Source of the DNA: Macrostomum lignano
Taxonomy: Eukaryota
Direction of reading: 5' to 3'
Assembly: GCA_002269645.1 (NCBI GenBank)
Contig: NIVC01001335.1
Coordinates: 1-64,000, forward strand
Length of the DNA stretch: 64,000 nucleotides
A program made the translations under genes and the position numbers. The notes under the pieces were generated by a model, which saw only the letters and a program-made list of their open reading frames with translations, did not search any database and was not told where the DNA came from. Each line of letters begins with the position of its first letter. Position 1 is the stretch's first letter. This document shows, one piece after another, positions 1 through 14,974 of this stretch.

Positions 1-129
1 CAAACATACACAGTCCATGCATGCTAATGGCGGCGAAGCGGTTGACTTTTTATTTTCTGCTCTTAGCTCTCTGGAGAATGAGAATCTCTCTTGTGCGCAA
101 CTCTTTAGGGAATAAAAAACTGTACTTAC

Positions 130-657
130 TCAAATCCACACTTGCTCATGCCCTTCCCGATTCAAGCGCCCCTTTCTACCCCCAGCTCTTTCAGCAGTCT
201 TCCTAGTACTTGTGAGGTGCGCACAAAATAAACCCGGCTCCGTGCGTTCGCCCTCTCTCCCCGTGCACTCGCCCTCTCTCCCCAAACACCCGCCCTCGGC
301 GTACACCCCCAACCCCAGTTTTGTCTTACTAAAAATAACAGCTTTAACTAGCTTCCGAGCGATCATCGCCTTCCACCCGCTTGAAGCCCCTATATTGTCT
401 AGTCTCTTAAGCATTTCTTTGTCCCAGCGATTTTCTCCTCAGGAAATCTCTATATTTAACATCGTGCCACATGCAGACAGAGTCTAGCTCGTTCACAGGC
501 TCATGCCCAGGATGTGGATTATTGTTTTTATCTAGCTTGTATTTCAAGTGGATTCAAAGGCCCGCAATATTTATAGCGGGAAGTGTCCAGCCTTTGTTCG
601 GATGAGGAAGCTTTTCTATCAGTCCATGTGAATTCTAACTTACACCAGAGCGCCCAT
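130..657 (-). pseudogene. Parvovirus-type phospholipase A2 domain protein (PLA2X-like), frameshifted
   Basis: Manual minus-strand translation across frameshifts: GLIEKLPHPNKGWTLP-YKYCGPLNPL...EPVNELDSVCMWHDVKY...DKEMLKRLDNI...KLVKAVIFSKTKLGLG. This has the Ca-loop YxxCGP and the catalytic HD. ATG at 657; the 3' part is ORF 130..414. Confidence 0.8.
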
Positions 658-686
658 TATTTTATTTAAAATTTCTTTTTAAATAA

Positions 687-1713
687 ATAACAGATCAGAA
701 ACTTAAAAAACTCTACTACAGCGACAAAGATTCTTTGTAGGCAAAATGCCGTTAGTAAACTCATGGAGCTGAGTAAGGAACCAAAAGCTACAGTAGAAAA
801 TGGCTCTCTAAGCAGGCTGTCTTTCAAGTCTATTTCCCACCAGAAAATTTGAAAGGCCCCATTTCAGTATTTATAAACCTAATGAAGCGCACCAAGCAGA
901 TCTTTTGTTTCTCCCCAATGACTCAGGCTACAAGTATGCTCTTACAATTATTGACATTGCTTCCAGATATAAGGAAGCTCGCCCACTCAAGACGAAGAAG
1001 TCAGAGGTTGTTGCCAGCGCACTGCCAAGATATTTATAAAAACTCTCCGCTCACATACCCCAAATCTTTATGACCGACCCGGGTAAGGAATTCATGGTGT
1101 AGTGAAATCCCTTATGGAAAAAAAAAACACAGAGATTCGCTATGCAGAACAAACTTGCACAGAGACCAGGCTTTTGTGGAAAGATTCAATCTTAACTCTA
1201 GCCAAGAGACTATTCACTAAGCAGACAGCGCAAGAACTCAAACTGAGTGCGGGGCATACTATACCAAGTGGACAGAAAGACTCCCCACTTTATAGAGCAA
1301 CTGAACAATGAAGTCACACGCATGACTGGATTGAAACCATCCCATGCAATTAAACAAGACACTGTCGAACTTAAGGCATCTCATAGAACAGACAACAAAC
1401 ACGACAACCCCACACAACACACACAACACAAAACACACCTCGAACTACCCTAAGCTTCCAGGAGTTGAATCACCATACATACTGACAAACTCTGAGTTTC
1501 TACGCTTTTTATATCTACCTGAGAGCTAGAGAAGACACCAAAAGAAGAGCTACAGATCCATACTTCAGCCTTGATGTGCATAAAATAGACAGACATTTTA
1601 CCTCCGACTCCGGTGACTATTACTTTTATCTCAAGCCTTTAACCCTAAATCCCCACGCGTCATTCACTAGAGCTGAACTCCTAGTGATACCAGCTGACAC
1701 AGAAATTAATTAA
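687..1713 (+). pseudogene. Retrovirus-like DDE integrase (Polinton c-integrase), multiply frameshifted
   Basis: Stitched frames read KWLSKQAVFQVYFPP, RPHFSIYKPNEAHQADLLFLPNDSGYKYALTIIDIASRYKEARPLKTK, FMTDPGKEF, QAFVERFN, LPHFIEQLNNEVTRMTGLKP, RRATDPYFSL, FTRAELLVIPADTEIN-stop (1713). All three D-D-E positions are present. The likely start codon reads ATA at 687. Confidence 0.9.
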
Positions 1714-1728
1714 AATATTAAATAAAAA

Positions 1729-2072
1729 ATGACAAAGATTGAAACTAGAACCTCAATAAACTCAATAAATCATTGAATCAAAGAAACCAGGTATATCAAT
1801 TAAAGGTGTCAAAGTAAAATCGATCCCACGCCAGCAAATAGTTCAGTGTAATGAACAAAGACACAGCATCACAGATGAAAAGTCAGGAGGAATCCTACCA
1901 TTAGCAGCTCTTATTCCGATCATTGCAGGCGCTGTAAGTGCCGCAGGTGTGTAGCTGGAGGTGTAGCAACTGCTGTTAAAGCTGGGAATGATAGAGCCCA
2001 CCAGCTGAATTGCAAAAGATTGCAAGAGACAAAGGTATAACAATTAAGGCAGGAGAGGCTGCCCGATCGTGA
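1729..2072 (+). pseudogene. Adenovirus protein X (mu)-like small membrane-active virion protein, frameshifted
   Basis: From 1877 the frame reads EKSGGILPLAALIPIIAGAVSAAG, then after a 1-nt shift VAGGVATAVKAGNDRAH, then AELQKIARDKG. This resembles adenovirus pX (MRGGILPLLIPLIAAAIGA), recalled from memory. Not present in the ORF track. Confidence 0.6.
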
Positions 2073-2287
2073 TGATTGTGAGAATGAAATTCTATAAGCA
2101 AGTCTGACATTGTCAAAGCCATCATGACACTGCACAATGCTGGGTTTACAATAATGCGGATGTGATGAGGTTTAAAACCCCACTTTATCCAGCTTCATAA
2201 ACCTAATACTACTTATAGGATGTAGAAACAGTTCAACTTTTCTATCAGGGTGGTCACCCTCAAAATTTTTTTTATTTTTCGAGAAAA

Positions 2288-13107: not shown

Positions 13108-13111
13108 GAAA

Positions 13112-13351
13112 TCACAATTGCCTAATGATTTCTGCAAAGTTATAGTAGCTGTCGTAATCTTTTACGTAGGTTACTCCATACTTATGAAACCAGTGTCTTT
13201 GGAGAGCTAGATTAATATTAGGGACATTGATATCAACGTCGGGCCAATATTTTCTCATGTACTCGCTGCATTCTAGTTTGCATCGGTACTTACTCTTGTA
13301 ATTAGGCTCGTGCGCTTTGTAATAAGAACCTGGAGAGACAACTGGAAACAT
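13112..13351 (-). CDS. Small aromatic-rich hypothetical protein at the edge of the Polinton
   Basis: 79-aa ORF with the same A-rich start context (ctaaaaATG) as other element genes; no recognisable family. Confidence 0.35.
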   Translation of the reverse strand: MFPVVSPGSYYKAHEPNYKSKYRCKLECSEYMRKYWPDVDINVPNINLALQRHWFHKYGVTYVKDYDSYYNFAEIIRQL

Positions 13352-13562
13352 TTTTAGAGAAAATTTAATTTTTTTTTCAAAGGGTAAGGACCCTGGGTTA
13401 GGGGGTTTAAAGTTTTAGGGATCTGGTTTCATGTTGCGAATTGAATGTGGGGAGAAGAATGCATATTTTTTTCTGATTGTTTCGAAGATGCTATGGATGG
13501 ATGTCAGTGGATTATGTCTGTGTCAGTGAGCATAACAGGTATCAGTGGACCCATATTCCCAT

Positions 13563-13860
13563 ATTCTGTCAGTCATAATATGGATGGATTTAATGGGATT
13601 AAAGTTTTCGGAGCAAGTGCGGCCCCTCCCCTTTTTCATGATTCTTTCGGGGATAATATGGATGGATTTAATGGGATTATGGAGGACGTTTTGTGAGCGG
13701 GTGCGACCCCCCTTTTTTTTCTTATTCTGTCAGGGATAATATGGAAGGATTTAGGTGGATTATGGAGGACGTTTTGTTAGCGAGTGCGACCCCCCTTTTT
13801 TTCTGATTCTGTCAGGGATAATATGGATGGATTTAGGTGGATTATGGAGGAGGTGAAAAA
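13563..13860. repeat. Degenerate tandem repeat of about 80 bp, about 4 copies
   Basis: attctgtcagggataatatggatggattta... recurs at 13563, 13641, 13724 and 13806. Confidence 0.85.
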
Positions 13861-13894
13861 TTTTGTCCCAGAAGCCCCCTCATGCCTTCTACTT

Positions 13895-14974
13895 GCGGGT
13901 GACACCGACTGGCACACTCTAATGATGTGTACAATCTCATATCTGAGTCTATTGATACAGCTTGGCAATTTCTGATTGATTTTCCTGGATTTCCCCATTT
14001 AAATGTATAGGAATTTTCCGGAATCTCCGCCTGCGGATATATGGAAAGCAGATTAAGCTAGACACACGATTCTTTCTGCGGGTGACACCGACTGGCACAC
14101 TCTAATGATGTGTACAATCTCATATCTGAGTCTATTGATACAGCTTGGCAATTTCTGATTGATTTTCCTGGATTTCCCCATTTAAATGTATAGGAATTTT
14201 CCGGAATCTCCGCCTGCGAATATCTGGAAAGCAGATTAAGCTAGACACACGATTCTTTCTGCGGGTGACACCGACTGGCACACTCTAATGATGTGTACAA
14301 TCTCATATCTGAGTCTATTGATACAGCTTGGCAATTTCTGATTGATTTTCCTGGATTTCCCCATTTAAATGTATAGGAATTTTCCGGAATCTCCGCCTGC
14401 GAATATCTGGAAAGCAGATTAAGCTAGACACACGATTCTTTCTGCGGGTGACACCGACTGGCACACTCTAATGATGTGTACAATCTCATATCTGAGTCTA
14501 TTGATACAGCTTGGCAATTTCTGATTGATTTTCCTGGATTTCCCCATTTAAATGTATAGGAATTTTCCGGAATCTCCGCCTGCGAATATCTGGAAAGCAG
14601 ATTGAGCTAGACACACGATTCTTTCTGCGGGTGACACCGACTGGCACACTCTAATGATGTGTACAATCTCATATCTGAGTCTATTGATACAGCTTGGCAA
14701 TTTCTGATTGATTTTCCTGGATTTCCCCATTTAAATGTATAGGAATTTTCCGGAATCTCCGCCTGCGGATATATGGAAAGCAGATTAAGCTAGACACACG
14801 ATTCTTTCTGCGGGTGACACCGACTGGCACACTCTAATGATGTGTACAATCTCATATCTGAGTCTATTGATACAGCTTGGCAATTTCTGATTGATTTTCC
14901 TGGATTTCCCCATTTAAATGTATAGGAATTTTCCGGAATCTCCGCCTGCGAATATCTGGAAAGCAGATTAAGCT
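13895..14974. repeat. 183-bp tandem repeat, about 5.9 near-identical copies
   Basis: gcgggtgacaccgactggc starts at 13895, 14078, 14261, 14444, 14627 and 14810. Confidence 0.97.

Follow-up and report, generated by a model that had tools for sequence, protein, structure and literature searches.

The window analysed here comprises the first 64 kb of contig C1335 within a 764-Mb assembly, and its left part carries a Maverick/Polinton-type endogenous virus of the flatworm Macrostomum lignano. The host is identified from an innexin gene at window positions 58416-59711, whose product is 99% identical to an M. lignano protein, and the flatworm origin surmised in a preliminary description of this DNA is thus confirmed. 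The element copy occupies positions 1-13893 (plus strand) and is truncated by the contig start; about 2.7 kb more, including the left terminal inverted repeat (TIR), are found on contig C2678, to give a whole of about 16.6 kb. Sister copies can be aligned with the window through position 13893 and diverge beyond it. The end at 14974 proposed earlier must therefore be moved to 13893, from where a host satellite of 5.9 units of 183 bp (13894-14974) constitutes the insertion target outside the element. The satellite has 534 matches genome-wide, with arrays on many contigs, and it follows none of the ten sister-copy ends among those shown. The right TIR (13144-13893, 750 nt, terminus ...CTACT) is followed by the hexanucleotide TGCGGG (13894-13899, plus strand), the 6-bp target-site duplication (TSD). 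The left junction sequence predicted from these features has a single exact occurrence genome-wide, on C2678. There the same six nucleotides adjoin a 750-nt TIR with 100% identity to 13144-13893, and the contig runs on through 49 nt of this 183-bp satellite. C2678 overlaps window positions 1-6370 at 98.6% identity, with 19 mismatches and 66 gap openings. We read the left end on C2678 and the right end in the window as a single insertion of about 16.6 kb flanked by TGCGGG. Maverick/Polinton elements end in AG...CT; the termini here are AGTAG...CTACT, and the long TIRs expected of such elements are present, 750 nt and identical at both ends. Left end, TIRs and 6-bp duplication, all of which the preliminary description had left to be retrieved, are thereby accounted for.

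Gene identities were examined by Pfam search of window pieces together with the natural, unbroken open reading frames (ORFs) of sister copies. The window pieces match rve, Adeno_PX, DNA_pol_B_2, Endonuclease_7, Peptidase_C5, Pox_A32 and DJR-like_dom; several of these matches score under the curated threshold. A phospholipase A2 (PLA2) gene of the parvovirus VP1 type (151-653, minus strand) contains 8 frameshifting indels in this assembly and is recognized on the natural sister ORF (PF08398, E 3e-13), in which no Adeno_PX match indicative of a pX tail was found. A group I intron considered for this gene is absent, the ORF being continuous through YCGP in 18 of 18 left arms and Rfam giving no match in the window and eight loci. 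The retroviral-type integrase (687-1713, plus strand) matches rve with E 4.6e-9 on the sister ORF and E 6.8e-5 on the window piece; its 17 frameshifting indels in the window compare with 0 in the overlapping contig C2678. The pX-like core protein is encoded by a separate ORF (1729-2165, plus strand; Adeno_PX E 4.5e-7 on the sister ORF). The protein-primed DNA polymerase of family B (PolB; 2288-6148, plus strand) scores above cut-off on the sister ORF (PF03175, E 2.9e-16, 59.9 bits), and has the Exo I/II and Pol A/B/C motifs with catalytic motifs intact. It carries an endonuclease-VII/HNH insert (Endonuclease_7, E 7e-5 on the window piece, just under cut-off), whose motifs are kept in homologues, and viral OTU (vOTU)-like Cys/His motifs, the Cys motif being retained in 8 of 8 rows and the His motif in the query as well as the majority of 20 homologues. 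The vOTU role on PolB is taken from PMC11161782; Pfam and PDB sequences returned no OTU domain match on this PolB. An adenain-type cysteine protease follows (6180-6579, plus strand; Peptidase_C5 E 9.5e-5 on the sister ORF, over cut-off). In the divergent gene pairs, PLA2 with integrase and the Gln-rich ORF at 9691-10903 with the major capsid protein gene, about 30 nt of almost pure A+T separate the partners (654-686 and 10904-10933); every core gene is preceded by a short AT-rich leader with a run of A before the ATG. A spliced-leader acceptor ahead of each gene was considered and dropped, the leaders having no common AG acceptor pattern.

The genes for virion formation lie in the right half. 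The A32/FtsK-type packaging ATPase, here of type A (8215-9014, minus strand), matches Pox_A32 above cut-off (E 2.8e-6), and a 21-nt tandem repeat (9054-9242) is located upstream of it. The double jelly-roll major capsid protein (MCP; 10934-12219, plus strand, type A, 428 amino acids in sisters) has a Pfam DJR-like match below that family's cut-off, and its profile found no match among PDB sequences. The model of a sister MCP, folded with 63 relatives, reaches a pLDDT of 93 and resembles the Sputnik MCP (3j26; E 6.3e-16, TM 0.64), with similar rows obtained against a viral library. The penton gene (12244-13107, plus strand) is unbroken here, and its predicted single jelly-roll (pLDDT 75) matches the mavirus penton (6g42; E 4.6e-10, Z 12.7, rmsd 7.3, 230 residues aligned); the structure matches listed as far as E 7e-4 all belong to virophages or adenoviruses. 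Both capsid proteins are thus predicted to adopt the virophage double and single jelly-roll folds, on which the preliminary description had staked its claim. Outside the genome, MCP has 98 unnamed relatives (best full-length identities 72% and 43%) and penton 13 (39-65% identity); no related locus was retrieved from metagenome contigs with MCP as query or from viral contigs with PolB as query, both searches detecting close relatives only. Between protease and ATPase on the minus strand are a conserved gene of about 215 amino acids with a Gly/Ala-rich hydrophobic stretch (6583-7289; ratio of nonsynonymous to synonymous substitution, dN/dS, 0.24-0.31) and a coiled-coil protein gene (7381-8198, 272 amino acids in sister ORFs). 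The former is real and conserved, but the label GasderminX given to it earlier is unsupported, for neither Pfam, PDB sequences nor Atlas gave a gasdermin match, pX was not matched either, and its Atlas look-alikes are unnamed clusters (score 0.94). A strongly conserved 129-aa ORF (9284-9673, minus strand; dN/dS 0.05-0.08), putatively a core protein, matched no family in profile searches, so that its earlier name stays a guess. The region left unnamed at 9691-10903 (minus strand) does hold a gene, which requires correction to a single Gln-rich ORF, about 405-412 amino acids long in sister copies, that the present assembly breaks in two. A 79-aa orphan ORF situated mostly within the TIR (13112-13351, minus strand; dN/dS 0.22-0.27) had been missed at the right end. 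With these amendments the gene set and order previously assigned, PLA2(-), integrase(+), pX(+), PolB(+) and protease(+) through to MCP(+) and penton(+), is borne out by Pfam and fold comparison, and the Maverick/adintovirus identity holds from gene set, jelly-roll folds, TIR and 6-bp TSD. The element shows every Maverick/Polinton feature that was examined.

Well over 100 similar copies exist in M. lignano. The exact 22-nt terminal motif occurs 346 times genome-wide (control 0), equivalent to about 170 elements, and provides the copy count that had been called for. Scored genome matches show 88-100% identity for the ATPase (150 of 689 candidates), 78-100% for PolB (144 of 941) and 94-100% for MCP (150 of 568). 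From the first 100 termini listed we chose 21 two-ended copies, leaving out those above about 21 kb; their lengths span 3.6-20.3 kb, with 13 of the 21 at 14.8-16.6 kb and deleted or rearranged copies of 3.6, 3.8, 8.7, 11.2 and 12.5 kb retaining intact ends. An exact 6-bp TSD flanks 15 of the 21, three are off by one base and three have none; with three of three further copies and the window copy, the TSD is present in 19 of 25 two-ended copies. PolB pairwise distances are 0.3-3.0% (22 copies, 231 pairs), and two copies, C819b and C1330, differ by 0-0.3% in all genes compared while residing at different sites. A young family, with the window copy recently inserted, appears to be the best explanation of these sequence relationships. 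Several structural variants were encountered along the way. The left TIR of a sister copy on C33 (L015:1493-5194) harbours a DIRS/Ngaro-like retroelement with SAP-domain ORF, reverse transcriptase and tyrosine recombinase; copies nested within copies occur at L027:7152 (C2829) and L079 (C5061), and the C5061 TIR is 100% identical to that of the window over 750 nt at a different site. An 11.2-kb copy (C276:289398-300645, L069/L070) has ends matching over at least 3 kb and capsid genes at both ends, and two loci (L021:8198-9453, L024:7981-9316) show a left end with an inverted duplicate of the penton 3' half, giving a TIR of about 1.3 kb.

Pairwise dN/dS values were determined with breaks masked, the main values being from pairs with a proportion of synonymous differences (pS) of at least 0.02; pairs are not independent. 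The ratios are 0.07-0.10 for MCP, 0.04-0.20 for penton, 0.14-0.17 for the ATPase, 0.05-0.08 for the putative core protein, 0.19-0.20 for PolB, 0.13-0.16 for the integrase and up to 0.36 for accessory genes. The MCP ratio is 0.10 over the 190 pairs with pS 0.02-0.1, and few in-frame stops interrupt the capsid genes: 2 across 26 copies for MCP and 1 across 27 for penton. Judged from these substitution patterns, the capsid genes are under purifying selection, from which it follows that the element likely still spreads through virus particles; the same argument has been made for virions of vertebrate Mavericks (PMC8097293). The family also appears to recombine. Two ATPase types (87% identical) and two types of MCP plus penton (85% and 81% identical) sit, in different combinations, on PolBs at least 99% identical in the pairs compared. 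Among 23 copies the ATPase/capsid combinations are 14 A/A, 4 B/A, 3 A/B and 1 B/B, with one copy having a third ATPase type, and the nearest-neighbour copy changes along the element. Exact TSDs flank several of the mosaics and speak against mis-joins. Comparison of the TIR tips in 22 copies shows 8 copies with identical tips and 6 in which 7-35 of 170 sites differ, each tip of these 6 being closer to a tip of another copy. Mosaicism is reported to be common in this virus group (10.64898/2026.10.13.758929; PMC8502044).

The left arm, which lies outside the window and extends from terminus to integrase, measures 1.4-5.9 kb in 18 copies and contains different orphan genes; from sequence comparison it is an exchangeable slot for predicted helical proteins. 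The slot proteins (212-303 amino acids) form two groups at 15-34% identity that align weakly to each other (probability 24%), with a sub-threshold helix-turn-helix match (E 8e-4). A DUF3102-like reading of them received no support from Pfam, PHROG or Atlas. Three-unit heat-shock elements (HSEs) number 26 in the left arms compared to 0.56 in shuffles. Of 18 arms, 11 carry a perfect four-unit HSE, which makes 11 of 23 copies overall. In the 10 arms where the distance was measured, it lies 57-201 nt upstream of the slot ORF and a TATA-like box stands between the two; the part of the element inside the window has none, nor do four additional copies. Two element-specific promoter patterns have 46 and 39 genome-wide matches (control 0), not necessarily all inside copies. 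An HSE guessed for the present copy from 170 nt held in common with HSE-bearing copies was refuted by the real left arm, which has none. As separate observations, each 183-bp satellite unit in 13894-14974 contains one imperfect four-unit HSE-like word, and the left arm of C819 (L065:936-1994) contains a 352-aa ORF with a sub-threshold QRICH1-domain match, which we take as a possible Crypton-like insert. We offer tentatively, and with more doubt than confidence, the idea of a living, recombining Maverick population in which a slot resembling phage immunity regions would take up one or another of many highly divergent DNA-binding regulators, about half of them heat-shock-driven; stress of the host would then induce the proviruses, as the SOS response induces lambda.

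On the collective evidence, the Maverick copy in the window was inserted recently and belongs to a high-copy, recombining family of endogenous adintovirus-like viruses that is probably still cycling through particles, a reading to which we assign a probability of roughly 70%. By analogy to the family, the provirus would be excised or copied and replicated by its own polymerase, with terminal protein priming at the TIR ends. The ATPase would then package the DNA into a double jelly-roll icosahedral shell with penton vertices, and the protease would mature the pX and core proteins. At entry, PLA2 may aid membrane passage, and the integrase would return the element to germline DNA under 6-bp duplication. 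The left-arm orphan may act as a regulator, heat-shock-induced in HSE-bearing copies. A number of points weigh against this reading. The life cycle, with its particles, free genome ends and transcripts, is a prediction from sequence. The few pairs with pS below 0.02 give noisy dN/dS, with values of 1 or more for pX and the coiled-coil gene; the ratios, pairwise and non-independent, may partly record selection before the latest copying; and cyprinid Mavericks show a far lower dN/dS of about 0.001 (PMC8097293). Across the sister copies, 447 frameshifting indels and 17 stops were counted, some of which may be real. The mosaics could in part reflect gene conversion between integrated copies or polishing artefacts. 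The copy's own left arm is without a three- or four-unit HSE and carries another gene. Finally, M. lignano is allotetraploid and its assembly redundant (PMC12801592), so that unique loci are fewer than the termini suggest. Contigs from public runs give no evidence either way on expression, since coverage is even across element and satellite in two runs guessed to be RNA and reaches 10 of 30 bins in a third.

That the window copy is a decayed relic whose frameshifts are real mutations is a very remote prospect in our assessment, even though 60 frameshifting indels separate the window from natural sister ORFs. In-frame stops amount to 0, and 57 of the indels are single-base, 50 of these being deletions and 40 located in homopolymers. 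Their density is 16-20 per kb at the contig start and drops to 0 at the penton gene. In PLA2, integrase and pX the window has 8, 17 and 9 breaks, C2678 only 1, 0 and 1; in two PolB parts, breaks are counted in both contigs (7 in the window vs 4; 9 vs 11 in the C-terminal part, near the end of C2678 itself), which could favour decay if their positions coincide. Contigs from public runs, which pool all copies, contain additional letters at 11 of 12 displayed indel sites (91 listed), and the two 750-nt TIRs are identical. Because C2678 is without nearly all of the breaks in PLA2, integrase and pX, and given the contig-end gradient and the public-run contigs, most window frameshifts are likely assembly errors at the contig end, of which single ones may be real. 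The earlier account of hidden, frameshifted genes was accurate in that they are broken in this assembly; the relic picture it conveyed has to be revised, the breaks being probably for the most part contig-end errors and the family young. Long-read errors at contig ends can thus conceal such a family from gene annotation.

The particle-borne life cycle has to be weighed also against two other modes of spread. Were the family a self-synthesizing transposon moving only within the genome, its capsid dN/dS left over from a viral phase and its mosaics products of gene conversion, the absence of virion evidence, the survival of intact ends in deleted or rearranged copies (3.6-12.5 kb) and the near-identity of C819b and C1330 at different sites would all be expected. 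We consider this unlikely in view of the low MCP dN/dS even at pS 0.02-0.1, the full-size range of 13 of the 21 sampled two-ended copies and the scarcity of capsid stops. Still less probable is a helper-dependent hyperparasite akin to virophages or entomopoxvirus-associated polinton-like viruses, with core genes transcribed only during infection by a large DNA virus. The short A+T spacers of the divergent gene pairs and the AT-rich leaders ending in an A run would suit it, and elements with Maverick-type MCP do occur with entomopoxviruses (PMC11296320). Set against it, the left-arm slot appears to use host-type promoters with HSE and TATA-like box, and the virophage capsid matches, at only about 10% identity, are uninformative on lifestyle. 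The helper-virus marker PF04947 gave 0 matches, but so did the control search. We know of no helper virus for M. lignano.

Compared with known systems, the element itself is a standard Maverick. It has in common with animal Mavericks/Polintons the TIRs, 6-bp TSD, protein-primed PolB, integrase, ATPase, protease, MCP, penton and purifying selection on core genes (PMC8097293). It is distinguished from vertebrate Mavericks by the flatworm host, copies 97-100% identical in PolB, few stops, PLA2 and the exchangeable left-arm slot; a few vertebrate Mavericks reach copy numbers of 100-287, these high-copy cases being described as defective or mostly so (PMC8097293). Adintoviruses (PMC8502044) share the animal host, OTU-like PolB motifs, integrase, adenain, FtsK-type ATPase, hexon, penton, PLA2 and pX-like genes, as well as variable accessory genes near the end, and virion-module exchange between lineages has been described for them. 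The Alpha adintovirus virion module has PLA2 fused to a pX domain (PLA2X; PMC8502044); here each has its own ORF, and the two lie on opposite strands. The weak PF03175 match (59.9 bits) hints at a Beta-class PolB, whereas PLA2 is said to typify Alpha virion modules (PMC8502044). The HNH insert and gene swapping between co-resident elements recall the pPolB2-HNH Polintons of nematodes and oomycetes (10.1101/2023.08.22.554363); the modules swapped here are ATPase and capsid on a uniform PolB. An endonuclease-VII domain is found in 11 of 55 PolB relatives, one from a wasp, so the insert is not peculiar to the M. lignano family; the best PolB match outside the genome has 46% identity, and the named matches are from insects. 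Sputnik and mavirus offer the closest solved folds for the modelled MCP and penton (3j26, 6g42), yet they differ from the present element in sequence (about 10% identity), its animal host and the lack of evidence for giant-virus dependence. The long terminal repeat (LTR) retrotransposons of M. lignano, whose heat induction is driven by HSEs (PMC12801592), are alike in having canonical HSEs in mobile-element promoters of the same host; they differ in that the HSE considered here, a predicted promoter element, belongs to a DNA element and stands before an accessory gene in roughly half of the copies.

So far as our searches show, the M. lignano family appears undescribed, as the earlier note had thought possible; RepBase and third-party GenBank entries were outside the scope of these literature searches. 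By title or abstract start, none of the papers found that link Macrostomum or flatworms with Polinton or Maverick describes it. An Orthopolintovirales insertion has been reported in a rhabditophoran (10.1101/2025.04.19.649669). Macrostomum and flatworm are absent from the text and the searched supplement part of the adintovirus paper (PMC8502044), as are Maverick and Polinton from the text and supplements searched of PMC12801592, and the literature listings contained nothing on heat shock linked to Mavericks.

Beyond the satellite, the window contains host genes at 20820-22557, 24393-27422, 29731-32002, 48517-54844 and 58416-59711, several with minisatellite-filled introns. Their products are a CHIP/STUB1-like protein (TPR plus U-box), a RING protein, a kinase that we take to be CDK8-like, an Srw-type G protein-coupled receptor and the innexin. 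Decayed pieces of an LTR retrotransposon are present at 38584-40402 (minus strand), with an rve match at 38587-39030 and a reverse transcriptase-like ORF recognized nearby by eye.

Lastly, the family has importance for two questions of Maverick biology. Particles of vertebrate Mavericks had remained unobserved as of PMC8097293, and what activates animal Mavericks is, as far as our searches show, an open question. A young, large family that combines selected capsid genes, module swapping and heat-shock-type promoters provides a practical place to address virion and trigger alike, the more so as M. lignano is a tractable host with transgenesis and published heat-shock RNA-seq (PMC12801592). Should the proposed stress-responsive slot prove true, Maverick virions and their trigger would become directly testable in a transgenic model animal.

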